Assembly (NCBI GenBank): GCA_963807035.1 | Contig: CAWEAL010000003.1 | Location: forward strand, 164,372 to 228,371 | Direction: 5' to 3' | Length of the DNA stretch: 64,000 nt | Origin: an uncultured Chloroflexia bacterium | GTDB lineage: Bacteria; Chloroflexota; Limnocylindria; Limnocylindrales; CSP1-4 | Notes under the pieces: model-generated | Told to the model about the DNA's origin: nothing | The model's input: only the letters and a program-made list of their open reading frames with translations | The model's database searches: none | Made by a program: the position numbers and the translations under genes | Shown: one piece after another, positions 17,869 through 38,096 of the stretch | Layout of the letters: every line of letters starts with the position of its first letter | How positions within the stretch are numbered: position 1 is the stretch's first letter

Positions 17869-17954
17869 CTTGGAACCTCCTCGTCGGGAACGCGAACGCA
17901 GTTGATCATGGCACGTCGAGGGCGCGGTGGCGAGCCGGGCCGCTATCGGGCGTC

Positions 17955-19025: not shown

Positions 19026-19031
19026 CTTTCG

Positions 19032-19037
19032 ATGATA
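19032..19037 (-). promoter_or_regulatory. -10-like hexamer TATCAT, 6 nt upstream of selD ATG (leaderless-type)
   Basis: Minus-strand reading CACTATCATCGAAAGATG. Confidence 0.35.
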
Positions 19038-19049
19038 GTGGGGCCCCGG

Positions 19050-19055
19050 TAGACT
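19050..19055 (+). promoter_or_regulatory. -10-like hexamer TAGACT, 6 nt upstream of ATG 19062 (leaderless-type)
   Basis: GGTAGACTGGCCCCATG. The whole divergent intergenic region is only 36 bp. Confidence 0.35.
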
Positions 19056-19061
19056 GGCCCC

Positions 19062-19941: not shown

Positions 19942-20038
19942 GGGAGCGGAGGGGTCCCGGTGGGTCCCCCGGTCTTCAAAACCGGTGGCGCCACGCTCCG
20001 CGTGACGCGGTGGGTTCGACTCCCACGCGCTCCCGCCA
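19942..20038 (+). tRNA. selC: tRNA-Sec (anticodon UCA)
   Basis: ~97 nt. Anticodon arm CCGGU-CUUCAAA-ACCGG gives U33-UCA-A37. Long variable arm (..CCGCG UGA CGCGG..). T arm GUGGG-UUCGACU-CCCAC. 5' GGGAGCG pairs with 3' CGCUCCC, followed by G-CCA. Sits between selD and selA/selB. Confidence 0.85.
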
Positions 20039-20047
20039 CGAAACGTG

Positions 20048-20075
20048 TTCAGACGGGTTCAGACGGCTCAGACGG
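20048..20075 (+). repeat. three direct copies of (T)TCAGACGG at 10-bp period, 10 nt after the tRNA-Sec 3' end
   Basis: TTCAGACGG g TTCAGACGG c TCAGACGG read directly. Confidence 0.8.
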
Positions 20076-20252
20076 CGGCGCGACGTCCGAGGCGCCGCTT
20101 CGTGCCGTGCGGCCGGAGCCGGTTGCTACGCGGTCCCCCACCCCAACAGCACCAGTACGGCTGCCACCGCGAGCAGAACGGAGCCGGCGATCGCCACCGG
20201 CCACCATCTGCCGAGCCGGCCGCCCGGTCGGGTGGGCCCGAGCGGGCGATCC

Positions 20253-20474
20253 TCACTCTGGTGCGGTGGGCATCCGCTTCCGACACTCCGGGCAGAGATC
20301 GCGGCCGGCGTCGCCCCGCCGAAGGTCGCGCAGCTCGATCCGCAAGCCAGCCGGGCAATCGAAGAACGTGTGGTAGCCCAGCCCAGGCGTCACCCGCCCG
20401 TCGTGATACGGCCGCCGGGCCATCCACGCGACGACCCCTGTTGAGATCTCCTCGAGGTCTTCTGCCGTGTGCAT
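20253..20474 (-). CDS. hypothetical small protein (73 aa)
   Basis: Internal ATG of ORF 20253..20816 (MHTAEDLEEISTGVVAWMARRPYHDG...CPECRKRMPTAPE). No family recognised. A C-terminal TM-like segment is encoded just downstream in another frame. Confidence 0.3.
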   Translation of the reverse strand: MHTAEDLEEISTGVVAWMARRPYHDGRVTPGLGYHTFFDCPAGLRIELRDLRRGDAGRDLCPECRKRMPTAPE

Positions 20475-20701
20475 GGCCTCCCTGAAGGTTCCAGTGTGGC
20501 GCGGGAGCCGCGCTCGCGCAACGGATGCGCGGTCGCCGATACACCCGCTGGTTCTCGAAGCGTGGGCGGGCCGGGGGGCCGTTGGCCTCAGGCACATAGG
20601 TCGTATGGCTCTGTTCCCAGAGCTTGCGTGGCGGGACGATCCCGACCGGGTGGCCGACACCCGCCCCGCGATCGGCCGCCACGAGACTGAGGGACAGGCG
20701 G

Positions 20702-21194
20702 ATGCGCTCCTTGCCGGAGACGGCTCACGAACATCGCAACCGGATCGAGGCGCACGTGGACCGGCTGCCCGAGCTCGCCGAGATGATCGGACGAGTCTCC
20801 CCGGACGAGTTCGCATCGAGCTTCGAGGTGGAATGCGGCTTCATCGTGGGTGAGCTCGTACCGCACATGGAGGCGATCGAGAAATCGCTCTACAGGCAGC
20901 TTGAGCAACTCATGGGCAATCGGCATTCGATGACCCCGATGCGACGCGAGCATGACCAGCTGCGGGGGCTTTTCAAGTCGCTTTGCGAGTATCGCAGGGA
21001 GGCAGCCGGCGGGACCCTGGATCAGGCGGGGGAGGTCGGGCTTCGGCGGGTCCTCTATCGGCTGTACTCGATCCTGAAGGTCCACCTCGCCGAGGAGGAG
21101 CTCTACCTGCGAGTGCTCGAGGGACAACCTCTCGGCGGAGGCGAAGGACGTCCTGGCCCGGGGCATCGATCACGCGGTCGCCAAGCCGCTCTAG
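20702..21194 (+). pseudogene. hemerythrin (HHE cation-binding) domain protein, frameshifted near 21125
   Basis: MRSLPETAHEHRNRIEAHVDRL...HMEAIEKSLY...RHSMTPMRREHDQL...LKVHLAEEELYLRVLEG is in frame 2. The conserved tail NLSAEAKDVLARGIDHAVAKPL* is in frame 0. It is a paralog of the 21799..22294 gene. Confidence 0.7.
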
Positions 21195-21206
21195 ACCGAG
21201 CCGGCG

Positions 21207-21775
21207 CTACCCGGACCCGGCCGGGCCAAACCGATCTGGGTGGCCCCGATCCCTCGGCTTGGTCACGGCTTCGAGGTACCGCGCGTTGAACTCGGCGATC
21301 AGCCGAGCGCGCTCCTTCATCACGGCCGCCCATTCGTCGATGGCCAGCGTAGCCGGCGCTGGTCAGCTCGTAGTCGCGCCGCTGTGGCCCAGCCGCCTCG
21401 GCCGACCATGAGGAGGTGACCATGTCCGGCCTCCTCGAGGTCGCGCAGCGTCCGGTAGACCTGCCCGACATCGACCGGCCCACCGGTGATGCCCATCTCT
21501 TCGAGCTGGGCCGTGATCGCGTAGCCGTGGGTACGCCCGCCCGCCAGCAGGACGAGGACGAACGGCTCCATCCAGCGACGCCGGCTACCGAGCGGTGCCC
21601 ACCCTCGGTGGATCGGGGTCCCCGCCGAATCGCGATCGGAGCTGAGAGCGTCGTTGTTCGCGTCCGGCTGGGCGGCCGTGCCCGCGGGGTCGCCACCTAC
21701 TTCCCCTCCCGACCTTGGGTGATATCTCGACGCACTCATCTGCGTCTGGAGCATAGTCGCCTCTGGGAGGTGCAT
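21207..21775 (-). pseudogene. PadR-family transcriptional regulator, two frameshifts (about 21421 and 21345)
   Basis: WMEPFVLVLLAGGRTHGYAITAQLEEMGITGGPVDVGQVYRTLRDLEEAGH / VTSSWSAEAAGPQRRDYELTSAGYA / AIDEWAAVMKERARLIAEFNARYLEAV...* are read in three successive frames. Start uncertain. Confidence 0.7.
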
Positions 21776-21798
21776 CGAAGCGGGACCCGGGTCGGCGG

Positions 21799-22294
21799 TC
21801 AGGCCCCGGCGATCCCTGGGTGCTTCATCGCCGCCGCGAGCGCGTCGGCGGCTTCAGCCGACACGCCGTGGTCGACGATTCCTGCATAGAGCTCCTCCTC
21901 GGCGAGGTGGACCTTCAGGAGGGCGTACAGGCCGGAAGATGACCCGCCGCAGGGCGACGGCTTCGCCGGTCGAGAGCCGACCACCGTCCACGTCCTTCTG
22001 CATGCGCAGAAGGTCGTCGATCAGCTTGCGAATCTCCCCGTGCTCCCGTCGCATCGGGGTCATCGAGTGGCGGTTCTGGAGCATTCGCTCGAGCTCCGGG
22101 TAGAGGGTCCGCTCGGCCGCCTCCATGTGGGGGATCAGGAGCCCGGTCAGGAACGACGCGATCTCGTCCAACGGCGGTGCCAACTCCGCGACGGGCACGG
22201 AGCCGATCCGGTCGCCGAGGACCGGCATCCGGTCGACATGCCGCATCAGTCGCTCGTGGTGTTCGTGTGCCACGCCTTGCAGGGTCGGAATCAT
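21799..22294 (-). pseudogene. hemerythrin (HHE) domain protein, frameshifted near 21931
   Basis: MIPTLQGVAHEHHERLMRHVDRM...HMEAAERTLY...RHSMTPMRREHGEI...ALRRVIF in one frame, then LYALLKVHLAEEELYAGIVDHGVSAEAADALAAAMKH...* in the next. Confidence 0.7.
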
Positions 22295-22432
22295 CGAAGA
22301 CCTCCTCGGCGCCTGGCCGGCTTCCCATCCCGGACCTGTCTTCCAGCCGGGCATGTCGAGAACGTGGCACGGGCGTGGGCCCGGCCAAAGATCGAAACGC
22401 GCGTCGTCGCGGTCGGCGGCCGAATCGCGCCG

Positions 22433-23623
22433 CTACCCATGGTCGGCCCCCTTCGGCCCCTCCTGTGGAGCTTCGGCCAGCGCGAGGAAGAACAGCGCGA
22501 CGGGCCGGTACACGGCGTGAGCGAACTTCATGAATGGGGCGAGCAGGACGAGCTCCATTGCGACGGCGACATGGAACAGGAACACCCAGTAGCCCCAGCC
22601 GGGCGCGCTCGGGAGGTACAGGGCGAGCTCGATCGCGAAGCCGGTCACGCCGGTGATCCAGAGCAAGGCGAGGAACGTCCAGTCGGCGGCCGTCGAGTGG
22701 CGGACCGATCGCTCGTCGCCGCGCAGTCGCTGGAGGATGAGCATGCTCACGCCGTAGACGAGCAGCAAGCCGGCGACGGTGCCCAGCAGGCGGACGGGAT
22801 ACCAGACCGGGACTGGCGTACCGGTGGCCTTGATCCCGATCACGGCCAGGCCGTAGTCGAGGATCGTGGCGGCCAGCAACCCGAGGAAGCCCCACATCGT
22901 CGCGGCATGGAGGAACCAGCGACGGCGGAACCAGGGCAGCCGATCCGCGTCCGGGTCGCAGTCGGCGCGGTAGCGGCGTTGTCCGAGCGACTCGACGCCC
23001 AGGGCGCTCCACAGGGCGCCCAGGGATCGGCGCAGCGCGGGCCGGCTGCCGACGACGGAGCGCCAGCCGACGCCGCCTTCGCGGGCGAGCCGGCGAGCCA
23101 TCGTCACGACCCCGGCCAGGCCGGCCACGAACACGAGGACCATCACGCCGATCCCGATGTTGTGGATGAGCTCCTCGGGGATGAACCCGAAGATGTCGAG
23201 CGACTCGACGCTCTGGGCGCCGTGCGCTGCATACATGAACAGGGCGAAGAAGGCGGCCAGCGCCACCGCGATGAATGTTCCCAGGAACGGGCGGGTGTAC
23301 ATCGTCCGGGCGAGCCCCGTCCGGTCATAGCCGGCGATCGCGTAGCGGCGGGCGGCGGCCATGAACTCGCTCGGCTCGGCCTGGGTCGGGCACGTCTCGG
23401 AGCATTCGCCACAGGCGTAGCAGGTCCACAGCTCCTTGCTCGAGAGGAGCTTGTCGCGCAGGCCGACCTGGGCGTAGCGGATCATCCGCCGCGGGAACGT
23501 CGCGTCGTTCGTGACGAGCGGGCAGGTCGCCGTGCAGGTCCCGCAGCTGAAGCAGGCCGACACGTCTGCCGCGCCGAAGCGCTGCAGGTCGGTGAACAGG
23601 CCGGTGTCCACCTGGGTCGTCAT
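22433..23623 (-). CDS. QmoC-like membrane redox subunit (HdrC-like 2x[4Fe-4S] domain fused to an HdrE/DsrM/NarI-like cytochrome b membrane domain)
   Basis: 396 aa. CFSCGTCTATCP and CYACGECSETCP motifs, then about six TM helices with conserved His (FLHAATMWGF, FLFHVAVAMEL, KFAHAVYRP). Confidence 0.8.
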   Translation of the reverse strand: MTTQVDTGLFTDLQRFGAADVSACFSCGTCTATCPLVTNDATFPRRMIRYAQVGLRDKLLSSKELWTCYACGECSETCPTQAEPSEFMAAARRYAIAGYDRTGLARTMYTRPFLGTFIAVALAAFFALFMYAAHGAQSVESLDIFGFIPEELIHNIGIGVMVLVFVAGLAGVVTMARRLAREGGVGWRSVVGSRPALRRSLGALWSALGVESLGQRRYRADCDPDADRLPWFRRRWFLHAATMWGFLGLLAATILDYGLAVIGIKATGTPVPVWYPVRLLGTVAGLLLVYGVSMLILQRLRGDERSVRHSTAADWTFLALLWITGVTGFAIELALYLPSAPGWGYWVFLFHVAVAMELVLLAPFMKFAHAVYRPVALFFLALAEAPQEGPKGADHG

Positions 23624-23657
23624 CGGACCGATTCCGTGGGCTGGCTCGGGCTGGCAG

Positions 23658-23906
23658 TCATGCCGGCTCCTTCTCGATCGATTCGTAGCGGAAGTAGCCT
23701 TCGTCGGTCGCCCCCTTGACTTCCCGGAGGTGGCCGTAGCGACGCATGCCCATCACCCAGAAGACGACTTCGTGGGTCGGGCAGCCGAGGGCCGCGGCAA
23801 TCTCGGGCACGGTCCGTGGCCCGTCCCGGAGGATGGCCAGGATCTGGGCGCGCATGACCGGCTCCTCGCGGACGATCTCGCGGAGCTCGCGGTTCGGTCC
23901 GTTCAT
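23658..23906 (-). CDS. small winged-helix-like protein (82 aa) inside the hdr/qmo-like operon
   Basis: ATGA overlap with the hdrA-like stop. ...ILAILRDGPRTVPEIAAALGCPTHEVVFWVMGMRRYGHLRE... is HTH-like. Family not recognised. Confidence 0.5.
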   Translation of the reverse strand: MNGPNRELREIVREEPVMRAQILAILRDGPRTVPEIAAALGCPTHEVVFWVMGMRRYGHLREVKGATDEGYFRYESIEKEPA

Positions 23907-25645
23907 GCCACCGGGACCTCCAGCAGGCTGTCGATCATCGCGCTGATCTGGGCATCGGTGTAGCCACGCAGATCGATCGCGTTCTCGGGGCAGATCGGGA
24001 CGCACCCGCCGCATCCCTTGCAGCCGGTCTCGCTGATGATCGCCGTCGCCTTCGATCCGCCGGTGGCCATCTCGATCGCTCCGTACGGGCAGGCGTCGAG
24101 GCACGCGCCGCAGGCCGTGCAGGCATCCGGATCGACCGTGGCGACGAGCGGATCGAGCTCGGCGAAGCCCTTCTTCAGGATCACCGCACTCTGGGTGACG
24201 GCGGCCAGGCCCGAAGCGACGCTCTCGCTCGAGTTCTTCGGGCCCTGGCAGGCGCCCGCGATATAGACCCCATCGACGACGGTCTCGACCGGCCGGAGCT
24301 TGGGGTGGATCTCGTTGAAGAACCCGTCCGCTCCGAGCGGCAGCTTGAGGATCCCGATGAGCTCCTCGTTCTTGCGCGGGATCATGCCGGTGACGAGGAC
24401 GACCAGGTCGGCTGGAATGGCCAGCTCCTCGCCCCCGGTGAGTAGGTCGCGCACGGTGACGACCAGGCGCCCCGCGGCGTCGCGGGCCACGGCCGGAGGC
24501 GCGTCGTCGGCGAACTTCAGGTAGACCGAGCCGAGCTTGCGCGACTCGGTGTACATCAGCTCGAACTTGCCGTAGGTCCGCATGTCGCGGTACAGGTGGT
24601 ACTGGTGGACCTGGGCGTCCCGGGACGCCAGCTGGACCGACGTGGCGACCGTCGCCGCACAGCAGTAGCGCGAGCAATAGGTGTTCGCGCCCGGCTTGTC
24701 CGCCGCTTCGCGGCTGCCGACGCAATAGACGTAGACGACGTTGCGCACCGGCTTTCCGCCGTAGGTGAGCGGGCCCGTGGAACGGTCGACCAGCTCCTTG
24801 AACTCGGGCAGCGTGACGACGCCGTCGATCCCGTAGCCGTAGTCGCCCACCTCCGGCTGGTAGGTCTCGAACCCGGTCGCCACGATGATCGAGCCGACCT
24901 CGACCGAGAGCGTCTCGGGCGTGGGCCCGCTGATCCGGAGCCCGACCTGGTAGTTCCCGAAGCCGCCCGACTTGCTCACGAGCTCGGTCCCGGTGAAGAC
25001 GGTGATCGCCGGGCGCCGGCGGACCTGCTCGATCAGGGAGGCGATCAGTGCCCGGCCGTTCTTGCCGGTCGGATACATCTGGTCGAACCGGCCGACCCAG
25101 CCGCCGAGCTCGGCCTGGCGTTCGACCAGGAAGACGCCCAGCCCGATGTCGGCCAGCCCGATGGCCGCCCTCAGCCCGGCGACGCCGCCGCCGACCACGA
25201 GCGTCTTCTGGGTGGTCTCGACGACGAGCGGCTCGAGCGGATCCGACAGCCGGGTCCGGGCAATGCCGGCCTTGACCAGGCTGATCGCCTTGTTCGTCGT
25301 CCCTTGTGCATCGTCCGACTGGACCCAGGAGTCCTGCTCCCTGACGTTGACCTGGGTGTACTCGTACGGGTTGAGGCCGGCTCGCTTGGCCACGCCCCGG
25401 AAGGTGACCACGTGGAGCTTCGGCGAGCACGACGCGACGACGAGACCGTCGAGGTGCTGCTCCTCGATGTCGCGCTCCATCTCGCCCTGGCCCGAGTCCG
25501 CACAGGCAAACATCATCTGGCGGGCGACTACCACACCTTCCTCGGCCTGGGCCGCGGCGACGACCTGGTCGATGTCGACGTGGTCGGAGATGTTGCCGCC
25601 GCAGTGGCAGACGTAGACCCCGATCCGACGCTCGCGCCCGGTCAT
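23903..25645 (-). CDS. hdrA: HdrA-like FAD/Fe-S flavoprotein (QmoB-like without the MvhD domain)
   Basis: 580 aa. N-terminal IGVYVCHCGGNISDHVD Cys-cluster domain, dinucleotide fold TLVVGGGVAGLRAA, CSRYCC motif, and C-terminal ferredoxin CTACGACLDACP / CKGCGGCVPICP. Confidence 0.85.
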   Translation of the reverse strand: MTGRERRIGVYVCHCGGNISDHVDIDQVVAAAQAEEGVVVARQMMFACADSGQGEMERDIEEQHLDGLVVASCSPKLHVVTFRGVAKRAGLNPYEYTQVNVREQDSWVQSDDAQGTTNKAISLVKAGIARTRLSDPLEPLVVETTQKTLVVGGGVAGLRAAIGLADIGLGVFLVERQAELGGWVGRFDQMYPTGKNGRALIASLIEQVRRRPAITVFTGTELVSKSGGFGNYQVGLRISGPTPETLSVEVGSIIVATGFETYQPEVGDYGYGIDGVVTLPEFKELVDRSTGPLTYGGKPVRNVVYVYCVGSREAADKPGANTYCSRYCCAATVATSVQLASRDAQVHQYHLYRDMRTYGKFELMYTESRKLGSVYLKFADDAPPAVARDAAGRLVVTVRDLLTGGEELAIPADLVVLVTGMIPRKNEELIGILKLPLGADGFFNEIHPKLRPVETVVDGVYIAGACQGPKNSSESVASGLAAVTQSAVILKKGFAELDPLVATVDPDACTACGACLDACPYGAIEMATGGSKATAIISETGCKGCGGCVPICPENAIDLRGYTDAQISAMIDSLLEVPVA

Positions 25646-28353
25646 GCCGGCACCTTCGCCTGTTCCAGGTAGGCCGCCACCTGGGCCACGGTCGAGCCCG
25701 CGTGGAGGATCGAATCGGCGATGTCCTTGGCGCCCGAGGCGGCCCCGGCGACGTACACGCCGGGGATGCTGGTCTGGCCCGGATTGGCGTCCTCGTCGGT
25801 CTCCGCCACGTAGTGGAATTCGTCCTCGGCCAAGCCGCCCAGGGGGAAGAGCGCCTGGGCATCGCTGTTCGGTTGGACCCCGACGGCGAGCACGACCAGG
25901 TCATACTCGGCCTCGACCAGGCCGCCGCCGTTCTCGATGTCCTCGTAGCGCAGGACCAGGTCGCCGTTGTCCTTCTCGGTGATCTTGGCCACCCGGCCCT
26001 TGACGTAGTTGGCACCCATCGCCCGGGCCTGCTGGTAGAACTCCTCGTAGCGCTTGCCGGGTGCCCGGATGTCCATGTAGTGGACGGTCACGTCGGCGAT
26101 CGGCAGGGCGCCCATGATCAGCTGGTTCTGCTTGATCGAGTACATGCAGCAGAAGCGCGAGCAGAGCGGATTGCCGACCGTCTCGTCGCGCGAGCCCGTG
26201 CACAGCACGTAGGCGATCCGCTCGGGGACCTTGCCGTCGCCCGGCCGGAGGATCGTGTTGAACGGCCGGGTCGGGGCGAGCAGGCGGTCCATCTGCATCC
26301 CGGTGATCACGTTCTTGAACGCGCCATAGCCGTACTCCGGCTTGAGGTCGGCCGCGAAGAGCTTGAAGCCCGTGGCAACGACGACCGCGCCGACTTCGAT
26401 ATCGAGCACCTGGTCGCGGGCGTGGAGGTCGATGCAGCCGTCGACCGGGCAGGCGTCGACGCACTCGCCGCACTCCGAGCAGACGCCGCAGTCGAGGCAC
26501 AGGCCGGCGCCACGATGGGCCTCCGCTTCGGTCATCGGCAGCTCGACCTCGCGGAAGTCGGTGGGTGCGGCGCTGATCACCTCGCTCGGCTCGAGCGGGA
26601 CGGCCAGGCGGTACGCCTTCTGGCGTGCCAGGACCTGGGCCTTGTCGACGACCGGCAGGCGCCGGTCGAACCCGTCGAGCGCCTCGCCGTTGACCCAGCG
26701 ATCGATCATGTGCGCGGCACGCTGGCCCTGGCCGGTCGCCCGGGTGATGTCGGATGCGCCCGACACGACGTCGCCGGCCGCGAACAGCCAGGGAACGCCG
26801 CTCTGGAGCGTTTCGGGATCGACCGCAAGCGTGCCGCCCGGATTGGCCTGCACCTGCGCCGAGAACCCGCTCGTGTCGGGGGCCATCCCGATCGCGGTGA
26901 TGATCACCTCGCAGGCGATCTCGAAATCACTGCCCGGCACCGGCTCGGGCCGGCTCCGGCCGGACGCGTCCGGCCGGGCCGGCGCCATCCGGCTGCAGCG
27001 CAGGGCACGGGTCGCTCCGTGCCCGTCGTCGAGGACCTCGACCGGCGCGGCCTCGAAGACGAACCCGACCCCCTCCTGTTCGGTGTCATCGGCTTCGACA
27101 TGGTGGGCCGGCATCTCGGTCCGGGTGCGCCGGTAGACGACCGTGACGTCCTCCGCGCCCAAGCCGGCGGGCCGTCCGGGCCGTGTCCATGGCAACGTTC
27201 CCGCCGCCGATCACGACGACCCGCTTGCCCGACAGGTCGATGCCCTCACCGAGCTTGACCGCCCGCAGGAAGGCGACGCCGCTGAGCACGCCGTCGAGCT
27301 GCTCGCCGGGTACGCCGAGCTTCGTCGAGAGCGGGGTGCCGGTCGCCACCAGGACGGCGTCGTAGCCTTCGCCGTGGAGCGCCTCGAGGTCCTCCACCGG
27401 CGTGTTCGTGGCGATCTCGACGCCGAGCGCGGTGACATTCGCGATGTCCTGCTCGACGACCTCGGATGGCAGCCGGTAGGCCGGGATCGCGAGGCGCAGG
27501 AATCCGCCGGCCTTCGGCGCCGCGTCGAACATCCTGACCGCATAGCCCTTGCGGGCGAGCTGCCAGGCGGCAGTCAGGCCGGCCGGGCCGGTGCCAACGA
27601 TCGCCACCCGGTGTCCGTTGGGTTCGGGGATCGCGATGCCGGGACCATCGAACGCGTCGTAGTGGATGTCGGCGATGAACCGCTTGAGGCGGCGGATCGG
27701 AAGCGGTCCCTCGAGCGAGCCACGCGTGCATTCGAGCTCGCACGGCGCGTAGCAGGCCCGCCCGAGCGTACCGACGAGTGGCGTCGCGTCGAGGACGAGC
27801 TGGAACGCCTTCTCGTACTCGCCGCTCCGGATGAGCGACACGTAGCCGTGGGCCTGGATCCCGGCCGGGCAGGTGTACGAGCAGGGCGAGGATCCGGCCC
27901 GCTCGATGACGGCTTTCTTGGGCACGGCCTGGGGGAACGCGATGTAGGCCGCCCGGCGCTGCGATCATGTCGGCGTTGAACTGGTCGGGGACCGCCACGG
28001 TGCAGGCCGTCTCGCACTGCTGGCAGCCGGTGCAGGTCGCCTCGTTCGACGAATCGGGCCTTGCGGGTGACTTTCGCCTTGAATCGGCCTCCGGCACTGG
28101 GCGTGATGCCGTCGACTTCGCTGTAGGTGAGGGTGGTGACGTTCGGATGGTGGATCGAGGCGGCCATCTTCGGCGTCGAGATGCAGCTCGCGCAGTCGAG
28201 GGTCGGGAAGACCTTGCTGAGCAGGATCATCTTCCCGCCCACGCTCGCCTCCTTCTCGACGAGAAGGACGCGGTAGCCCATGTCGCCCAGCTTCAGGGCG
28301 GATTCCATGCCGCCGATGCCCGCCCCGACGACGAGGACGTCGTAGTCGGTCAT
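25642..28353 (-). pseudogene. giant HdrA-like flavoprotein with an inserted GltD/NfnB-like NAD(P)H-binding module ('HdrL'-like); three apparent frameshifts
   Basis: Domain continuity runs across four frames. (1) MTDYDVLVVGAGIGGMESALKL...KVFPTLDCASCISTPK...KARFVE. (2) EATCTGCQQCETACTVAVPDQFNADMIA. (3) RRAAYIAFPQAVPKKAVIERAGSSPCSYTCPAG...GRACYAPCELEC...VAIVGTGPAGLTAA...VVVIGGGNVAMDTARTARRLG. (4) AEDVTVVYRRTRTEMPAH...AAGDVV...CLDCGVCSECGECVDACP...CSRFCCMYS...GVYVAGAASG. Breaks at about 28044, 27959 and 27157. 4-nt overlaps with both neighbours. Confidence 0.75.
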
Positions 28354-28796
28354 GACGTCACCGCCGAGGGCCCCAGTTCGGCCAGGGCCTGGCCGAACTG
28401 CTGGACGTGCCTCGTGAACGGCTCGGCACAGACCGAGCAGATCGCCGCCATCTTGAGCCGCTGCGGCTGGTGGCCGCCCTGCTGCAGGAGGGCCTGGGCC
28501 TGGGCGACGATCCGCGATGCCCGTGCCGAGCAGTCAGGCAGGTAGGCGCACTCGTCGCCGTCGGATGCGATGAAGACGCCGTCGAAGCCACCCTCGATCG
28601 CCTGGAGGATCCAGCTCGGCCGGATCCCGCTCGTGCATGGCAGGCTGATGACGACGACGCCCGGTGAGTAGCTCATGTGCGAGCTGCCGGCCAGATCGAT
28701 GCCGGGGTCCGAGATGTTGTTCGTGGAGAAGACGAGGATCCGGGGGACGAATGTCCGGGCCTGATCTGCTGGCTTCAGCGGGGCGAGCGTCGTCAT
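28350..28796 (-). CDS. MvhD/FlpD-like (methyl-viologen-reducing hydrogenase delta subunit family) protein
   Basis: 148 aa. ILVFSTNNISDPGIDLAGSSHMSYSPGVVVISLPCTSGIRPSWILQAIEGGFDGVFIASDGDEC has the MvhD layout, but the usual N-terminal CCxxC is replaced. Confidence 0.65.
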   Translation of the reverse strand: MTTLAPLKPADQARTFVPRILVFSTNNISDPGIDLAGSSHMSYSPGVVVISLPCTSGIRPSWILQAIEGGFDGVFIASDGDECAYLPDCSARASRIVAQAQALLQQGGHQPQRLKMAAICSVCAEPFTRHVQQFGQALAELGPSAVTS

Positions 28797-28835
28797 CGAA
28801 GGGTGCTCCTTGGCCGGCCGGGGCAGCCCGGTGCC

Positions 28836-29111
28836 CTACTTCTGGCGCCGGACGAAGACCCGCTCGTAGCCTTCACCGGGCAGGTGTCCGAGGAAGACGT
28901 GGCCGACCTTTGTCGACCAGGCGCCGATGTCGCCCTTCGTAGCCGGATCGCTCGACCAGATCTCGATGACCTGGCCGATCTGGATCGTGCCCATTGCCTT
29001 CTTGGCCTCGAGGAGCGGTCCCGGGCAAGCGCTGCCGCGTGCGTCGACGACCTTGGCGCTCTCGAGGGCCATCAGGTCCGTGTCGCTGAGCGGGGTTGTG
29101 ATTGCGATCAT
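28836..29111 (-). CDS. tusA: TusA/SirA-family sulfur-carrier protein
   Basis: 91 aa from ATG 29111, preceded by GGAGAGGAG. VVDARGSACPGPLLEAKKAM contains the conserved CPxP persulfide-carrier motif. Confidence 0.8.
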   Translation of the reverse strand: MIAITTPLSDTDLMALESAKVVDARGSACPGPLLEAKKAMGTIQIGQVIEIWSSDPATKGDIGAWSTKVGHVFLGHLPGEGYERVFVRRQK

Positions 29112-29206
29112 TGGATTGATCTCCTCTCCGATCGCCGAGCCGCGTCCTGCGCGGCCGGCGAGCTGTGGGTCAGTGGACGTAGGCATTTCCCGAGACTGCC
29201 AGGCAC

Positions 29207-29614
29207 CTAGATGAAGACCGGCGAGCCATCGCCCATGTCGAGGAAGAACGTGGCGATCCCGCACACGTCGTCGACGATCGGATCGAGCTCGCCGGGAACG
29301 ATCCCGAGGAACTTCATCGAGGCCGAGCAGGCACGGATCCGGACGTCGCCGAGCTCCTTGGCCTGCCGGAAGGTCTCAGCCCACGGCAGCGATCCGGCCG
29401 GCGCCGTCGCCATCGGCGATCCAGCTTGGGCCGCGTCGAAGGCGAGCCCATGGTCCTTCGCGATGCTCTCCTTGCGAAATGCGTCGAGCGCCCAGAACTG
29501 CAGCAGGACGTTCACCGGCCGGCCCATCGCCGAGGCGCCGGCCGCGATCGTGGCCGCCGCATGGAGCTTGTCATCAGTACCGGAAAAGAGGACGACGGAG
29601 ATTGTTTCGCTCAT
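29207..29614 (-). CDS. DsrE/DsrF-like (DrsE_2-type) sulfur-relay family protein
   Basis: 135 aa. ISVVLFSGTDDKLHAAATIAAGASAMG ... IRACSASMKFLG pattern. ATGA overlap with the upstream arsR stop. Confidence 0.7.
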   Translation of the reverse strand: MSETISVVLFSGTDDKLHAAATIAAGASAMGRPVNVLLQFWALDAFRKESIAKDHGLAFDAAQAGSPMATAPAGSLPWAETFRQAKELGDVRIRACSASMKFLGIVPGELDPIVDDVCGIATFFLDMGDGSPVFI

Positions 29615-30045
29615 GTCGGACGTACCTCGGTAGGGGAGTAGCCGGCCAGGGCCGGTTCCTTGGCGGCGGCCGCAAGATCACCCAGCCTCGACAGCCGGCG
29701 GACGAGAACCTCGCGCATCAGCTCGCAGGCTCGGAGGACTTGGGGATCCGTCAACTGATAGCTGACCGATCGCCCTTCGCGAAGAGGCTCGACCAGACCG
29801 ACGGCCCGCATTGCGCCCAGGTGCTGCGACGCCGCAGCCTGACTGATGCCCAGCTCGCCTGCGACCTGATTGGCTCCGCACGGCCGGACGCCCAGGAGAT
29901 GGAGGATCTGCAGGCGCTGGGCGCTCGCAAGCGATCGCAGCAGCGAGGCCTGAAGCTCGTCGATATCGTGCGTCGCGCTTGCCATGGCCGGCTCCATCGC
30001 AGGGGCTTGATCCCCAGCCCGAGATGCCAGGTATCCCTGACTCAT
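29611..30045 (-). CDS. ArsR/SmtB-family transcriptional regulator (first gene of the hdr/qmo-like operon)
   Basis: LQILHLLGVRPCGANQVAGELGISQAAASQHLGAMRAVGLV is a wHTH. The start could instead be the internal MEPAM. Confidence 0.8.
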   Translation of the reverse strand: MSQGYLASRAGDQAPAMEPAMASATHDIDELQASLLRSLASAQRLQILHLLGVRPCGANQVAGELGISQAAASQHLGAMRAVGLVEPLREGRSVSYQLTDPQVLRACELMREVLVRRLSRLGDLAAAAKEPALAGYSPTEVRPT

Positions 30046-30061
30046 ATGATCTCTGAGCAGT

Positions 30062-30082
30062 TATATGCCATCGACACATATA
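30062..30082. promoter_or_regulatory. candidate operator: TATATG n9 CATATA inverted repeat in an AT-richer divergent arsR/osmC region
   Basis: Read directly. The only markedly AT-rich stretch in this part of the window. Confidence 0.25.
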
Positions 30083-30280
30083 CGCCATGGGCCGTTCGTC
30101 ACGCGACGACGGGCCAGGTGGACCGTTGCTGGTCGCGATCTATCCAGGACAGCCAGGAGGGCCCCGGCGGGGATCGAACGAGATGTCGCCCTGTGGCCCG
30201 CGCAGTTCGGGCCGGACGGCTCTTCAGCTAGCGCCGGAACGGGGCCCAGGCTGGCAGCCAGACGCACGGGAGGAACTCGC

Positions 30281-30790
30281 ATGGGAGTACGCACGGCGTC
30301 CGCGAGGCTCGACGGCGACGGGATGCGGCTCGTCGCGCTGACCGGCAGTAATCACTCGATCGTGATGGACAGCGCCGAGGGCGACTCGGGACCTCGGCCG
30401 GCCGAGCTCCTGCTGGTCGCCCAGGCCGGCTGCACCGCAATGGACGTCATCTCGATCCTGCGCAAGATGCGGCAGGCGGTGAGCGGCTACGAAGTCCGCG
30501 TCTCTGGCGAGCAGCGCGACGACCCACACCCGCACGTCTTCGAACGGATCCGGGTCGTCCACGTCGTCGAGGGGAACGTCGAGGTCGAGGCGGTCCGTCG
30601 CGCGATCGAGCTCTCCGCGACCCGCTACTGCACGGTCACGGGGAACCTCGCTTCGGGCGTCGCCGAGATCCGACACGAGTACCAGGTCCGCGACTCAGCT
30701 GGAGAGGAGCACCGAGGCGAGGTTGTCGTCACGGGCCCCGGTGACAGCCCCGACCACCTCGGCTTACGGCCCGCCTCAGCGGTCGTTTGA
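30281..30790 (+). CDS. OsmC/Ohr-family peroxiredoxin-like protein
   Basis: 169 aa from ATG 30281 after GGGAGGA. PAELLLVAQAGCTAMDV ... ATRYCTV carries the two conserved Cys of OsmC. Confidence 0.8.
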   Translation: MGVRTASARLDGDGMRLVALTGSNHSIVMDSAEGDSGPRPAELLLVAQAGCTAMDVISILRKMRQAVSGYEVRVSGEQRDDPHPHVFERIRVVHVVEGNVEVEAVRRAIELSATRYCTVTGNLASGVAEIRHEYQVRDSAGEEHRGEVVVTGPGDSPDHLGLRPASAVV

Positions 30791-30877
30791 GCTTCGGGCG
30801 ATGTATCCATCGAGGCTCGCATCTCGTCCCCTGAGTAGGAACGGGTGAGCGCCCGTCAGGAAGATGAGGACACCGAG

Positions 30878-31090
30878 ATGAAGTTCAGTACCAACGAAGC
30901 ACCGATCGATCGCGTCATCCGGATCGTGCTGGGGATCGCCCTCGCTGCGATTGCTCTCACGGGCTCCGTCAGCGCACCGTGGCTGTACGTCGTGTGGGCG
31001 TTGGCGGCAATTGCGCTCGTGACGGGCGTCATCGGCTTCTGCGCGCTGTATGCCCTGTTCGGCGTCAGCACGAAGTCGACAGCCGGGTGA
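30878..31090 (+). CDS. DUF2892 (YgaP-C-like) small membrane protein
   Basis: NEAPIDRVIRIVLGIALAAIALTG...LAAIALVTGVIGFCALYALFGVST is a typical DUF2892 two-helix pattern with the conserved Cys. Confidence 0.6.
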   Translation: MKFSTNEAPIDRVIRIVLGIALAAIALTGSVSAPWLYVVWALAAIALVTGVIGFCALYALFGVSTKSTAG

Positions 31091-31153
31091 GCAGCTCCAG
31101 GCGCGGATGAGGTGAAGGTGGCGCGCTATGGGGTGGCCGAGAAGGTCGAGCCG

Positions 31154-31936
31154 ATGACCAACGGCGACGAGTTCGCCGCGGAGCTCGTGCGCGCGCTGCC
31201 TTCCCTCGTCCGCCTCGCGAGCCGGCTCGTCCGCGACCCGGACCAGGCCGAGGATTGCGCGCAGGAGACGATCGTCGGAGCATGGCGCCGGCAGGACCAG
31301 CTTCGTGACCCGGCGGCCCTCGCCGGCTGGCTCCGGCGAAGTCTTGTGAACCGGATCATCGACCGTTCCCGGGCCCACCACGACGAGCTCGACATTGATG
31401 CAGTCGAGGCCGATTGGCGCGATGACCGCTATTCCGTCGCCCCGGATCGGGTCCTCGAACGAGCCGAGTTGCGGGATGCGCTCGAGGATGCGCTCGCGCG
31501 GCTGCCGGTGATCTATCGCGTCCCAGTCGTGCTCCACGATGCCGTCGGTTGGACGGCGGTCGAGATCGCGAGCGCGATGGATGCTGGATTGCCCGCAACC
31601 AAACAGCGCCTGCGACGGGGGCGGATGATGCTGGTGAGCGCGCTCGGCGAGGATGACGAGCGTCGCCAGGCGAGCCTCGCCCAGCCCCTCCGCTGCTGGC
31701 GGGCTCGTCGGCACATTTCTTCATACCTCGACGACGAGCTTGACCAGACGACGCGCACGGCGGTCGAGGCGCACCTCAAGACCTGCCCGACGTGTCCGCC
31801 TCTGTACGCGAGTCTCGTTGGTGTCATGGCAACGCTTGGCGGCTTACGCGACCCCGACACCGTGGTTGAGGAGGCGATGGCCGGGCGGATCCGCCAGCAT
31901 CTCGACCGCCAGGCCGGTCGACGAGGCGAGTCCTGA
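31154..31936 (+). CDS. ECF sigma-70 factor fused to a C-terminal zf-HC2 (ZAS) anti-sigma-like domain
   Basis: Region 2 (DPDQAEDCAQETIVGAWRR) and region 4 (VLHDAVGWTAVEIASAMDAGLPATKQRLRRGR) are followed in the same ORF by CWRARRHISSYLDDELDQTTRTAVEAHLKTCPTCP (H-x3-C-x2-C). Confidence 0.8.
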   Translation: MTNGDEFAAELVRALPSLVRLASRLVRDPDQAEDCAQETIVGAWRRQDQLRDPAALAGWLRRSLVNRIIDRSRAHHDELDIDAVEADWRDDRYSVAPDRVLERAELRDALEDALARLPVIYRVPVVLHDAVGWTAVEIASAMDAGLPATKQRLRRGRMMLVSALGEDDERRQASLAQPLRCWRARRHISSYLDDELDQTTRTAVEAHLKTCPTCPPLYASLVGVMATLGGLRDPDTVVEEAMAGRIRQHLDRQAGRRGES

Positions 31937-32127
31937 GGAGCTCGGACGATTGTTCTTCGCGGCCGAGCCGCCGGTCGCATTGTGAGCGAGCGATCCACAT
32001 CGCCCCAGTGGACGCGACGCAGCAGACGGCCCGCTGGCGATCACCCCGGAATCGACATCCGGCACCCTGAGGCGATGCCTTTTGGCCCTCCGACATCTCG
32101 ACCTGGAATGACACACTTCAACCTGAG

Positions 32128-32475
32128 ATGACCATCCACCAGCGCGCTCTGCCCGTCCTGCCTGAACTCCGCCTCGACCTGCTGACGCCGGAGGTCGAGG
32201 ACGTGGTAGCCGCTGCGGCCCTCGTCGGCGACCGGACTCGGGCCGGGATCCTGCGGATCCTCTCCGACGGCCCCCATTGCGTCTGCGAAATGGCGGCCGC
32301 GCTGGGCGAGCGCCAGAACAACGTCTCGAACCACCTGGCGCGGCTTCGTGAGGCCGGAGTCGTCCGTGCGAGCCGGCACCGGGTCGATGCCCGCTGGGTC
32401 TACTACGAGCGCGACGAAGCGGCCTGCTTGGGACTTCTGGCCGAGCTCAGGAGCCTCCTGGAGCCAAGACGATGA
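32128..32475 (+). CDS. ArsR/SmtB-family transcriptional regulator
   Basis: 115 aa. RILSDGPHCVCEMAAALGERQNNVSNHLARLREAGVV is a wHTH with a CVC metal/metalloid-type site. Confidence 0.8.
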   Translation: MTIHQRALPVLPELRLDLLTPEVEDVVAAAALVGDRTRAGILRILSDGPHCVCEMAAALGERQNNVSNHLARLREAGVVRASRHRVDARWVYYERDEAACLGLLAELRSLLEPRR

Positions 32476-33524
32476 CCACGATCAACCTGCACCCAGCCCG
32501 CCGGTTCCAGCTGCCGATCAAAGGCGTCGTCGGCGCCTCGGTCGTGGCCTGGCTGGTCGCCTGGTTCAGCGAAGCGCCGCTCTCAGACTGGTTGACGTTC
32601 ACGGTTCTTGGTCTCGAGCGGGGATCCCAGGTTGGCGAGGCGATCTCGTTCTTCCTGCTCGACCTGCCCAAGGTGCTGCTGCTCCTCCTCGGCATCATCA
32701 CGGTCGTGACCCTGATCCGCGGCTTCTTCCCGCCGGAGCGCGTCCGGGCAGCGCTCGCCGGCCGGGGGCTCATGACCGGGACGGTGGCCGCGGCCTCGTT
32801 TGGGATCGTGACCCCGTTCTGCTCGTGCTCCGCCGTACCCCTGTTCATCGGGTTCGTGGAGGCCGGGATCCCGCTCGGCGTGACCTTTGCGTTCCTGATC
32901 AGCTCACCGATGGTCAACGAAGTGGCGCTGGTCCTGCTGTGGGGCCTGTTTGGACCCGGCATCGCGCTCGTCTACATGGCCGCTGGGCTGGCCGTGGCGA
33001 TCGTCGGCGGGCTCCTGATCGGAAGGCTGAGAATGGAGCGCTACGTCGAGGCGTACGTGTGGGGTCTCCAGGGCAAGGGCGGCGCGGTCGTTGCGATCCA
33101 GCTCACGTGGGCCGACCGGATCCACGACGCCTGGGCGTACACGAAGGATCTGGTTCGGCGGATCCTGCCCTACCTGCTGATTGGGATCGGGATCGGGGCG
33201 CTCATCCACGGCTACGCACCGACCGAGCTCGTGGCCGCCATCGGGGGACGTTCCAACCCGTTCGCGGTACCGATCGTCATTCTCATCGCCCTGCCGCTCT
33301 ACTCGAACGCGGCGGGCACGATCCCGATCGTCCAGGCCCTCCTGGGCAAGGGGATGCCGCTGGGGACCACGCTCGCGTTCATGATGGCGATCACCGCGAT
33401 CAGCCTGCCCGAGTTCATCATCCTGCGGCGGGTCATCCGCTGGCCGCTCATCGCTGTCTTCGCCGCGGTCGTGACGGTCGGGATCCTGATGATCGGCTAC
33501 CTCTTCAACTTCCTCATCTACTGA
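32472..33524 (+). CDS. permease of the DUF318 / ArsP-like family (TPFCSCS motif)
   Basis: 350 aa, multi-TM. GIVTPFCSCSAVPLFIGFVEAGIPLG is the hallmark motif. ATGA overlap with arsR. Confidence 0.8.
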   Translation: MTTINLHPARRFQLPIKGVVGASVVAWLVAWFSEAPLSDWLTFTVLGLERGSQVGEAISFFLLDLPKVLLLLLGIITVVTLIRGFFPPERVRAALAGRGLMTGTVAAASFGIVTPFCSCSAVPLFIGFVEAGIPLGVTFAFLISSPMVNEVALVLLWGLFGPGIALVYMAAGLAVAIVGGLLIGRLRMERYVEAYVWGLQGKGGAVVAIQLTWADRIHDAWAYTKDLVRRILPYLLIGIGIGALIHGYAPTELVAAIGGRSNPFAVPIVILIALPLYSNAAGTIPIVQALLGKGMPLGTTLAFMMAITAISLPEFIILRRVIRWPLIAVFAAVVTVGILMIGYLFNFLIY

Positions 33525-33567
33525 CATCACGCCCTGGTGCGCCCGGGGCACTGGAGGCAACGCTCCC

Positions 33568-33804
33568 ATGAAGAAGATCGAGGTCCTCGGACCCGGTTGC
33601 AGCAACTGCCAGCGGCTCGAGGCGAATGCCCGGGCGGCCGTCGCCCTGACCGGCGTCGATGCCGAGATCGTCAAGGTCACCGACTACGGCCGGATCATGG
33701 CCTACGGGATCATGAGCACCCCCGGGCTCGTGATCGACGGCACGGTCATGAGCTACGGCAGGATCCCCTCCGCCGCCGACATCGCCGGATGGCTGAGCGC
33801 GTGA
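33568..33804 (+). CDS. thioredoxin-fold 'redox-active disulfide protein 2' family small protein
   Basis: 78 aa. MKKIEVLGPGCSNCQRLE...STPGLVIDG is the typical partner of ArsR/permease pairs. Confidence 0.75.
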   Translation: MKKIEVLGPGCSNCQRLEANARAAVALTGVDAEIVKVTDYGRIMAYGIMSTPGLVIDGTVMSYGRIPSAADIAGWLSA

Positions 33805-33907
33805 TCCGTCGCAGGAGTGGCTAGGGGCATCAGCCGACGATGAGCGGCCCGGGACCCACGGATTGCCCTAGCATGGACCGTCGCGGACCCCGGGCTGCAA
33901 CGTCAAC

Positions 33908-33965
33908 GCCGGTGCCGCCACGCTCCGCGTGACGCGGTGGGTGCGGCTCCCACGCGCTCCCGCCA
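33908..33965 (+). repeat. tRNA-Sec 3'-half remnant (direct repeat of 19981..20038; att-like or decayed selC copy)
   Basis: 54/58 identical to the variable arm, T arm and acceptor 3' strand plus CCA of selC. The T-loop is mutated (GGGTGCGGCTCCC vs GGGTTCGACTCCC). No matching 5' acceptor strand lies upstream. Confidence 0.75.
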
Positions 33966-33987
33966 GTCGTGCGAGATGGAGGATCGG

Positions 33988-35370: not shown

Positions 35371-35387
35371 CCGAAGGCCGGGTTGCG

Positions 35388-37987: not shown

Positions 37988-38096
37988 TGGGAGGAGGAGG
38001 ACCGGGACGAGGAGTACCTGACCAGAATCTGGACGCCGGCCGTTATCGCCGGCTGCACGGCCGGTTAACGCTGGGTGCGCGCCCGGAGCCGGCGCT

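Follow-up and report, generated by a model that had tools for sequence, protein, structure and literature searches.

The selC islands of Enterobacteriaceae typically carry a P4-family integrase beside selC, and the cis-mobilizable elements (CIMEs) of streptococci, which are flanked by att sites and have no recombination module of their own, are mobilised by the integrase of a resident ICE. The LEE of E. coli is an example of a selC island (reviewed in PMC7545054), and the gene has been described as an integration site (PMC6174562). In the Islander approach (Hudson, Lau and Williams 2015, PMC4383910), an island is delimited by an intact tRNA gene and a displaced 3' fragment of it, and 2083 of 3919 islands have att sites centred on the anticodon. 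A preprint on Actinomarina (bioRxiv 10.64898/2026.04.03.716425) describes a hypervariable region that is bounded by selA and includes selC, for which its authors suggest tRNA-targeted integration.

The locus analysed here lies in a 64-kb stretch of DNA, referred to as the window, which is assigned to Candidatus Limnocylindria (Chloroflexota), a class known only from metagenomes. It holds an island of about 13.86 kb (20039-33902) between selC and selA, real but of an ordinary kind: a tRNA-targeted genomic island without its own integrase. The island resembles the anticodon-centred 'A' att-site class of Islander tRNA/tmRNA-gene islands in having its two ends marked by an intact tRNA gene and by a displaced 3' fragment in direct orientation, in the start of that fragment within the anticodon loop, and in the empty sites of relatives. 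The fragment boundary falls at one of the recognised crossover sublocations (anticodon loop, T-loop, T/acceptor junction), namely at position 35, and at position 33 in two inserts of other Limnocylindria, L046 and L044. Islander (PMC4383910) requires a tyrosine integrase gene and intact att sites, however, whereas the window island has no tyrosine integrase inside it, and its attR departs from attL at 5 of 63 positions, with mutations in the core. With the selC islands of Enterobacteriaceae it shares selC as a target hotspot that receives different cargos in different strains; those islands differ in their virulence cargo, in their proteobacterial hosts and in that selC does not adjoin selA, while the two genes are neighbours in relatives of the window. 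A sequence relationship with those islands is not to be expected. No P4-family integrase lies beside the window selC, where the adjoining 0.6 kb is non-coding and without a Pfam match. Like CIMEs and degenerate islands, the locus has cargo between att-type repeats and no recombination module, but the mutated attR core argues against present-day mobility. As far as the available portion of the Actinomarina preprint goes, the space around selC and selA is a hotspot of variable content there too, in a different phylum and in a much larger region, for which neither a displaced selC fragment nor precise junctions are reported.

A single tRNA-Sec is called by both ARAGORN and Rfam (RF01852, 71.3 bits versus a gathering score of 47). 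Its 3' part, from the TCA anticodon (tRNA position 35) through the encoded CCA, recurs in direct orientation 13.9 kb downstream, with 58 of 63 nt identical (blastn-short E 8e-20; tRNA-Sec profile E 1.8e-8). An earlier, sequence-only reading of this DNA had reported the repeat as 58 nt at 54/58 identity; the direct repeat stands, and it reaches 5 nt further than was noted. That reading had also proposed a precise alignment with 100 nt of flank, in which similarity stops at the repeat limits: in the same register the upstream 100 nt are 22% identical and the downstream 100 nt 29%, against a chance expectation of 30%, and gapped local scores of the flanks lie inside the range of shuffled controls. 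Similarity is thus restricted to the tRNA's 3' portion. Five changes distinguish the right copy: A to C and A to G in the anticodon loop, G to C after the anticodon stem, and T to G and A to G in the T-loop. Two of them separate the anticodon-loop core of attL, TCAAAAC, from that of attR, TCAACGC, and the T-loop is ruined as previously described (TGCGG for TTCGA). No Rfam tRNA model recognises the right copy, even with the threshold relaxed to E<=10, in agreement with the earlier view that it is not a functional tRNA.

Because the right copy keeps the native spacing of 22 nt to the selA ATG, it is taken to be the displaced original 3' half, attR. Both this spacing and the downstream sequence agree with empty sites, and it is the sequence following attR, not that following attL, that matches the empty-site selC-selA spacer. 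In annotation, the displaced fragment is better labelled an att scar than a tRNA pseudogene. The 3' half of the intact selC (positions 35-97, the repeated part) is identical to that of L001, L003, L139, L140 and L142, and the 5' half differs by 1 nt in L139 and L140. [quoted passage not shown]

The block is a lineage-specific insertion. In 28 of 39 related loci containing selC, this gene lies 5-63 nt upstream of selA, so that the empty junction sought on the strength of the sequence-only reading is indeed found. The six closest relatives (L001-L003, L139, L140, L142) share the order fdhA-selD-hydrolase-selC-selA-selB-mobA, and the block is absent from all six. Their fdhA-selD flank is syntenic with the left host flank of the window, the hydrolase ortholog occupies the same position in the closest relatives, and the right host flank (33988..37987) is likewise syntenic in relatives. 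In five of the six (L002, L003, L139, L140, L142) selC is directly beside selA in the order hydrolase-selC-selA, with gaps of about 20-40 nt; the selC-selA junction of L001 holds 0.95 kb of unrelated DNA. The reported separation of selD-selC from selA-selB-mobA is borne out by the Pfam assignments and by this intact synteny. When 18 island genes were sought within 10 kb of selA in 54 related loci, none was found, and no relative carries the same block between selC and selA; its presence there without a repeat would have spoken against the earlier reading. Divergence between attR and selC is 8%, compared with 42-48% at fourfold-degenerate sites between the window and its nearest sampled relatives, which fits an insertion later than the lineage split.

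Features of the selC-selA locus (positions in the window)
Feature	Coordinates	Strand	Basis
Left host flank, selD then selenocysteine-containing formate dehydrogenase alpha subunit (fdhA)	15652..19085	-	Pfam Molybdopterin/Molydop_binding
selD	17955-19085	-	Pfam AIRS/AIRS_C
Alpha/beta hydrolase, host, directly upstream of selC	19062..19922	+	Pfam Abhydrolase_6/1
Intact selC, tRNA-Sec, anticodon TCA, CCA encoded; attL	19942..20038	+	ARAGORN, Rfam
Left repeat copy, within selC, anticodon to CCA	19976..20038	+	Alignment, blastn-short
tRNA-proximal island end, unique sequence, no coding-frame signal	20039..20575		GC3 flat in all six frames
Hemerythrin	20702-21191	+	Pfam
PadR	21225-21802	-	Pfam
Hemerythrin	21802-22294	-	Pfam
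Membrane subunit, 2x[4Fe-4S] domain fused to NarI-like domain	22433..23623	-	Pfam Fer4_8, Nitrate_red_gam
Small 82-aa ORF	23658-23906	-	
HdrA-like flavoprotein, intact, 580 aa	23903-25645	-	Pfam, alignment to L137
HdrA/GltD-type fusion flavoprotein	25642..28353	-	Comparison with relatives
MvhD/FlpD	28350-28796	-	Pfam
TusA	28836-29111	-	Pfam
DsrE-like	29207-29614	-	Pfam
ArsR-family regulator	29611-29985	-	Pfam
OsmC-like protein (ORF)	30065-30790	+	Pfam
ECF sigma factor fused to zf-HC2 anti-sigma domain	31112-31936	+	Pfam
ArsR-family regulator	32128-32475	+	Pfam
ArsP_1-family permease	32472-33524	+	Pfam
Small CxxC thioredoxin-like protein	33565-33804	+	Translation; L137 counterpart annotated Thioredoxin_3
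Distal island end, unique 92 nt	33811..33902		Comparison with related loci
Displaced original selC 3' part, attR; T-loop and anticodon-loop positions mutated	33903..33965	+	Repeat alignment, spacing to selA
selA (RBS GGAGG at 33978-33982)	33988-35370	+	Pfam SelA
selB	35367-37340	+	Pfam GTP_EFTU/SelB-wing
mobA	37340-37987	+	Pfam NTP_transf_3

Gene by gene, the cargo corresponds to an operon located elsewhere on the chromosome of other Limnocylindria, whose genes encode ArsR, DsrE, TusA, MvhD, hemerythrins, two HdrA-like proteins, and an ArsP-type permease together with a thioredoxin-like protein. These are redox and sulfur-handling functions: DsrE and TusA form a sulfur-relay set under ArsR regulation, accompanied by a flavoprotein complex of MvhD/HdrA type, the hemerythrins and an ArsR/ArsP-type permease/thioredoxin-like module. 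The gene order is that of an ordinary chromosomal region in L135 and L137, in which neither an att-like repeat nor a recombinase was found, so that the search yielded no vehicle. In other genomes, too, the surroundings of the homologous operon contained no att-like repeats or tRNA-Sec fragments. The membrane subunit is 88% identical to its L135 ortholog over the full length; homologs of the intact HdrA-like flavoprotein reach 92% identity, the named ones coming from Candidatus Limnocylindria MAGs; and the ArsR, ArsP_1 permease and thioredoxin-like genes at the distal end, all oriented towards selA, have L137 orthologs 78-90% identical. Near 29179-29203 a deletion of about 360 nt has removed a second DsrE gene that relatives have (comparison with L056, L135 and L137), and in L137 a TehB-like methyltransferase stands in place of the OsmC-like and ECF sigma genes (30065..31936). 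Both hemerythrins and PadR (20702..22294) are broken by single-base insertions near 21119, 21347, 21424 and 21932, as judged from frame switches relative to L137 and L135 and from base-level alignment against three relatives. The HdrA/GltD fusion, one ORF of 902 aa in relatives, is split by three +1 insertions near 28047, 27962 and 27160. Several cargo genes are either pseudogenes or affected by sequencing errors.

The cargo shares with sHdr/Flx-Hdr systems the HdrA-like flavoproteins with a CxGSRD...CSRxCC motif, MvhD, DsrE and TusA. In contrast to sHdr and Hdr, no HdrB/HdrC (CCG-domain) subunits and no lipoate-binding protein were detected in it; what it has instead is a NarI-like membrane subunit along with a GltD-type NAD(P)H module, and it does not therefore qualify as a canonical sHdr or Hdr complex. 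Selenoproteins of the island were rejected as a reason for its position among sel genes, since the HdrA-type motifs carry Cys and the gene breaks are +1 frameshifts, not in-frame TGA. The sole Sec codon found is that of the host fdhA (in-frame TGA at 17605-17607, context SCNRT-U-HAPSV). The composition check proposed with the sequence-only reading gave a divided answer: total GC is lower in the island than in the flanks (68.5% versus 73.1%; 2-kb windows, Mann-Whitney p = 3e-4), but gene GC3 is 0.87 versus 0.88, and because gene GC3 equals that of the flanks composition is weak evidence. The tetranucleotide signature was discarded as evidence of the donor; it is confounded, the compared loci being homologs of the island itself.

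That no integrase, excisionase or transposase lies inside the island had been proposed earlier and withstood a Pfam search of the island ORFs (PF00589 or other recombinase) and a six-frame Pfam scan of the tRNA-proximal 0.6 kb (20039-20660), which gave no match. The scan of some 45 predicted ORFs across the rest of the 64-kb window (about 20 kb left of selC and 30 kb right of attR) was also negative for recombinases, and no recombinase remnant turned up in any of these regions. The tRNA-proximal end, where an integrase gene would be expected, has no homology to any related locus and contains a tandem repeat of 10 nt x 3.4 at 20043-20076 (TRF). Cargo orthologs fill the remainder of the island, and the distal 92 nt have no homolog among related loci. 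Gene calls of L139, L140 and L142 include no recombinase, nor do the 34 ORFs sampled from inserts of relatives (L046, L037, L012, L044, L022, L018, L034, L025, L033, L001) include an integrase. Two other sources were considered and set aside: an integron-like cassette platform, no integrase gene adjoining the insertion site within the window, and a phage or provirus carrying the selC 3' half, for which there is no match in viral contigs. With no recombinase gene left the island would be locked in place, and the mutated attR core accords with the earlier description of an immobilised element.

Displaced selC fragments occur in four genomes, and in two or three other Limnocylindria genomes inserts of independent origin have a selC fragment that begins at the tRNA position seen in the window. 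In L046 a 6.2-kb insert lies between selC and a perfect 65-nt copy starting at position 33. The fragment of L044 is directly upstream of selA, and homology to the empty-site loci L026 and L016 starts at position 33; L033 has a shorter selC fragment, positions 55-97. A search ahead of the fragments for an attP arm common to the window, L046, L044 and L033 showed no conservation, and the idea was rejected. Unrelated cargo of 0.65-8.8 kb separates selC from selA in 11 of the 39 loci, and blocks A and B stand in opposite orders in L046 and L034.

It is likely that the island entered selC by site-specific recombination with a crossover in the anticodon loop and is now immobilised. The ancestor would have had selC about 20 nt upstream of selA, and the incoming DNA would have brought its own selC 3' part, from anticodon to CCA. 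Recombination would then have allowed the imported part to complete a functional selC at the left junction (attL) and moved the original part 13.9 kb away, to what is now the right junction (attR), 22 nt upstream of the start codon of selA. No longer needed, attR would since have gained its five substitutions, of which two lie in the core of the anticodon loop. A tyrosine integrase presumably carried out the integration and was later deleted or acted in trans.

It has to be asked whether an integrase was needed at all. Homologous recombination of the Campbell type, in which RecA would have inserted circular DNA from another Limnocylindria carrying a selC 3' part, would explain why an integrase is missing from the window island and the parallel inserts alike and why the cargo consists of DNA that is ordinarily chromosomal in relatives, and the selC 3' half, identical across relatives, makes the homology available. 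Such a route seems improbable to us, since in each of three independent inserts (window, L046 and L044) the fragment begins within tRNA positions 33-35, as predicted by site-specific crossover and not by random homologous fragments, and since RecA-mediated recombination would have had a short substrate in these 63 nt. The alternative named in the sequence-only reading, a decayed tandem duplicate of selC with the intervening 14 kb acquired separately, has a precedent in L037, where two identical full-length selC copies lie in 320-414-nt repeats about 2.7 kb apart. At the window locus, however, similarity does not extend over the whole tRNA but ends sharply at the anticodon, with the 100 nt upstream at chance level; the right copy retains its native spacing to selA and the same truncation point appears again in L046 and L044, all of which makes a duplicate very unlikely. 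There is similarly little probability that the block goes back to the ancestor and was lost from relatives by recombination between the repeats, even though excision between direct repeats would leave exactly the observed empty site. Parsimony disfavours it: six of six closest relatives and 28 of the 39 selC-containing relatives across the class are empty, none of 54 loci has an island gene near selA, and the operon lies in unrelated contexts in other genomes.

The source is a metagenome-assembled contig of 751 kb with several single-base insertions that are possibly sequencing errors, and a chimeric join at the repeated tRNA sequence might be suspected. The copies nevertheless differ at 5 of 63 positions, the right one with unique derived changes, so that they are not a collapsed or duplicated exact repeat, and both junctions are structured as expected for attL and attR; an artefact is extremely unlikely. 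The proximity of the fragment to selA, 22 nt before the start codon, and the confinement of all five changes to loop or junction positions, with variable-arm and T-arm stems intact, could instead indicate a tRNA-like element retained as a functional selA leader (tRNA mimic, processing site or promoter) and not a neutral scar. We give this scant credence. Four of the five changes are AT to GC at the few A/T sites, as neutral drift predicts where the genome has 73% GC; 33805-33990 does not fold more stably than shuffled sequence (z = -1.3); a search at attR for a promoter, a terminator or unusually stable structure gave nothing significant, and no promoter-like site was found; and relatives that have an insert without a fragment (L025, L034, L022, L018, L012) still keep selA. 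Site-specific integration into selC remains the preferred explanation.

A broader reading, suggestive only on the present data and in our judgement doubtful, is that the selC-selA junction may be a class-wide hotspot in Limnocylindria, where a recombinase encoded elsewhere would bring in integrase-less chromosomal blocks, stack them and change their order, every time with a crossover in the anticodon loop of selC. If this were true, the junction would be a route for exchanging ordinary operons among related genomes rather than the site of a series of decayed classical islands.

The locus documents a precisely bounded gene-transfer event in Candidatus Limnocylindria and indicates that selC is an integration hotspot well beyond the Enterobacteriaceae, where it has been studied. 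The insertion also parts selC from selAB. In relatives these genes, 5-63 nt apart, probably form one transcription unit; in the window lineage selAB would now be transcribed from island or junction promoters. Placement of selAB downstream of the ArsR-regulated permease operon may thus have rewired selenocysteine synthesis in this lineage.

The window encodes a single tRNA gene, selC for tRNA-Sec (called by ARAGORN and backed by Rfam RF01852 at 71.3 bits), and the 3′ part of this gene recurs in the same orientation at the far end of the 13.86-kb block that separates it from selA. A direct repeat of 58 nt had been noted from the sequence alone. It is present, but it is slightly longer: it starts at the TCA anticodon, ends with the encoded CCA, and is identical at 58 of 63 positions. 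The match is not a chance one, given its significance by blastn-short (E 8e-20) and with a profile of 40 tRNA-Sec sequences (E 1.8e-8). The distal copy had been taken to be non-functional, and indeed it lacks the 5′ half, has TGCGG instead of TTCGA in the T-loop, and finds zero matches among the Rfam tRNA models even at E ≤ 10. The island edge next to selC holds a tandem array, 3.4 copies of the 10-nt unit ACGGGTTCAG, beginning 5 nt past the CCA; it could be a remnant of recombinase arm-type sites, or chance.

The sequences that follow the two copies bear on which is the original. The right-hand copy is followed by GGAGG and, 22 nt past its CCA, by an ATG, and this stretch aligns with the selC–selA spacer of empty sites, where selC lies directly beside selA; the sequence 3′ of the intact selC does not align. 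Hence the original 3′ part of selC is the right-hand copy, pushed away by the insertion (attR), and the 3′ part of present-day selC arrived with the island (attL). A regenerated target with a displaced fragment is the signature by which tRNA-targeted islands are mapped, and about half of those mapped have sites centred on the anticodon (PMC4383910). The sequence-only reading of an element integrated at a tRNA gene thus holds. Its alternative, a decayed duplicate of selC, was rejected; in the same register, the 100-nt flanks of the two copies are 22% (upstream) and 29% (downstream) identical, with 30% expected by chance, and gapped local alignment gives the flanks scores no higher than those of shuffled sequence. 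All five differences between attL and attR are derived changes in attR, and the four that convert AT to GC are consistent with neutral drift in a genome of 73% GC. Two of the five fall in the anticodon loop, the would-be crossover core. With tyrosine recombinases, a mismatched core should prevent further recombination, and these changes should block it here.

Empty sites are common among relatives. A SelA search of species-representative genomes gave 54 loci, almost all of them in MAGs of Candidatus Limnocylindria or Limnocylindrales (Chloroflexota); selC is present in 39, and in 28 of these only 5–63 nt lie between its end and the start of selA. The nearest relatives are L001–L003 and three loci reached via the neighbouring hydrolase (L139, L140 and L142). 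All six share with the window the gene order fdhA(Sec)-selD/hydrolase-selC-selA-selB-mobA, and selC is immediately 5′ of selA in every one except L001, where 0.95 kb of unrelated DNA intervenes. When 18 island proteins were compared with the 54 loci by tblastn, none matched within 10 kb of selA. Because relatives have empty sites and the island genes are absent from these loci, the 13.9-kb block is an insertion particular to the lineage of the window. Beyond the sel genes, L139 and L140 have a gene for the organomercurial lyase MerB that separates mobA from an S51 peptidase gene; it is absent from the corresponding spot in the window and in L142.

The junction has received other DNA as well, 11 of the 39 loci carrying varied cargo of 0.65–8.8 kb. 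A tRNA-Sec profile search over all loci for further partial 3′ copies of selC found a perfect 65-nt copy in L046, starting at tRNA position 33 and lying 6.2 kb downstream of that locus's own selC; a fragment immediately upstream of selA in L044, where homology to the empty sites L026 and L016 also begins at position 33; and a shorter fragment (positions 55–97) in L033. Since the fragment starts recur in the anticodon loop, site-specific recombination is favoured over homologous recombination. The ORFs tested from inserts in related loci yielded no integrase, however. The clade of L046, L034, L025 and L033 has two cargo blocks between selC and selA, one with a LacI/ABC sugar transporter and one with an aldolase; their order varies, being opposite in L046 and L034, and the L046 fragment sits between the two blocks. 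The variable region of L033 also encodes a RES-domain protein (toxin-type domain) 5′ of selA. The two identical full-length selC genes of L037, about 2.7 kb apart in 99%-identical direct repeats (~320–414 nt) with a 769-codon ORF without Pfam match between them, are not the same type of event as the half-tRNA scars.

Total GC is lower in the island than in the flanks (68.5% versus 73.1%, significant over 2-kb windows), but gene GC3 is the same (0.87 versus 0.88), so composition adds little evidence. At fourfold-degenerate sites, the flanking host genes differ from their nearest sampled relatives by 42–48% and the island genes from their nearest homologs by 26–36%, and attR differs from selC by 8%. 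By these values the insertion is not recent, yet it postdates the divergence from all sampled relatives. The island's donor has no close relative among the sampled genomes.

The absence of integrase, excisionase and transposase genes from the island, remarked upon earlier, was borne out by Pfam searches of its ORFs and by a six-frame Pfam scan of 20039–20660. Each sizeable ORF is accounted for by Pfam or by a cargo ortholog; only two stretches lack assignment, and the left one gives no coding-frame signal. Approximately 45 ORFs predicted along the 64-kb window have housekeeping functions only, and none of the viral contigs searched carries this selC 3′ half. We interpret the feature as a tRNA-targeted genomic island that lacks an integrase. 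Features of this kind are well known; this one lies at selC in an uncultured class. As a target, selC is familiar chiefly through the pathogenicity islands of enterobacteria (PMC7545054, PMC6174562). In Actinomarina, the surroundings of selC and selA have been noted as a comparable variable region (bioRxiv 10.64898/2026.04.03.716425). A literature search found no paper covering Limnocylindria and selenocysteine together.

The core operon of the cargo is widespread in metagenomes (80 loci, 67–91% amino-acid identity), and its named homologs are from Limnocylindria MAGs. In L137, a locus that shares the cargo, collinearity with the island covers the entire segment that begins with hemerythrin and ends with the thioredoxin-like gene. 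The segment is placed there between unrelated chromosomal genes, and its surroundings contain no selC, att-like repeat or recombinase. Judged by domain content, the cargo resembles a redox module that responds to persulfides or chalcogens; a DsrE/TusA relay of sulfur would supply a flavoprotein complex of HdrA type, itself connected to NAD(P)H and the membrane. The hemerythrin genes are inverted paralogs flanking PadR, with one 44-nt arm pair 93% complementary, an arrangement that many copies of the operon from metagenomes share.

Four cargo genes contain single-base insertions relative to three homologous loci, and a second DsrE gene is also absent. Each of the three insertions in the HdrA/GltD gene adds a G to the coding strand, outside homopolymer runs; jointly they restore the frame, with stop codons intervening. 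No such insertions occur in the conserved sel-region genes (fdhA, selD, hydrolase, selA and selB; ~8 kb), the flanking genes have at least one (~15712), and protein-level divergence of the broken genes is not above that of intact neighbours. The frameshifts may be either recent pseudogenisation or sequencing error. Indel errors or pseudogenes seem common among these MAGs, since the L044 insert has its alpha-L-rhamnosidase gene divided between two reading frames, and comparison of L003 with the window and L002 shows several switches of frame.

Coordinates and features of the island, its flanks and the loci compared with it
Feature	Locus	Coordinates	Strand	Remarks
Conserved ~1000-aa ORF, no Pfam match	window	12963–15858	+	between NuoF-like gene and fdhA; also in L002, L003, L139, L140; +1 near 15712 shifts last 48 codons
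In-frame TGA, formate dehydrogenase alpha gene	window	17605–17607	−	context SCNRT-U-HAPSV
selC (tRNA-Sec)	window	19942–20038	+
attL	window	19976–20038
Stretches without assignment	window	20039–20575, 33811–33902
Tandem 10-nt repeat	window	20043–20076
Segments collinear with L137	window	20576–22324, 22397–30133, 32109–33810
Hemerythrin genes (inverted paralogous stretches)	window	20861–21105, 21887–22132		one minus-strand, the second divergent from minus-strand hemerythrin/PadR; insertions ~21119, ~21932
PadR gene	window		−	insertions ~21347, ~21424
ArsR regulator, DsrE, TusA, MvhD, HdrA-like protein	window		−
902-aa HdrA/GltD fusion flavoprotein	window	25642–28353	−	+1 insertions ~28047, ~27962, ~27160
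82-aa ORF, 2x[4Fe-4S]/NarI-like membrane protein	window		−
OsmC	window		+
ECF sigma factor (regions 2 and 4) fused to zf-HC2 anti-sigma domain	window	31112–31936	+	one ORF; also single in L065 and L083 (83–84% identity)
ArsR regulator, ArsP_1-family permease, CxxC thioredoxin-like protein	window		+
attR	window	33903–33965
Spot lacking MerB	window	37987–38097
MerB gene	L139	15146–15835
MerB gene	L140	15077–15766
Sugar-transporter and aldolase blocks	L046	991–9884
Sugar-transporter and aldolase blocks	L034	1133–9808
selC direct repeats	L037	4499–4912, 7233–7553
RES-domain protein	L033	8282–8947	−
Split rhamnosidase gene	L044	5714–8030

The insertion may bear on expression of the selenocysteine genes. 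The sole selenoprotein gene seen near the sel cluster is that of formate dehydrogenase alpha, directly downstream of selD, whose in-frame TGA is a selenocysteine codon. In relatives, selC and selAB probably form one transcription unit, because the gap between selC and selA is too small for a promoter. In the window, selA lies 183 nt after the arsR-arsP-trx genes at 32128–33804 in the same orientation, and no sigma-70-like promoter was detected near attR, though the consensus might not be valid for this phylum. It is plausible that selAB would be transcribed by read-through from the island.
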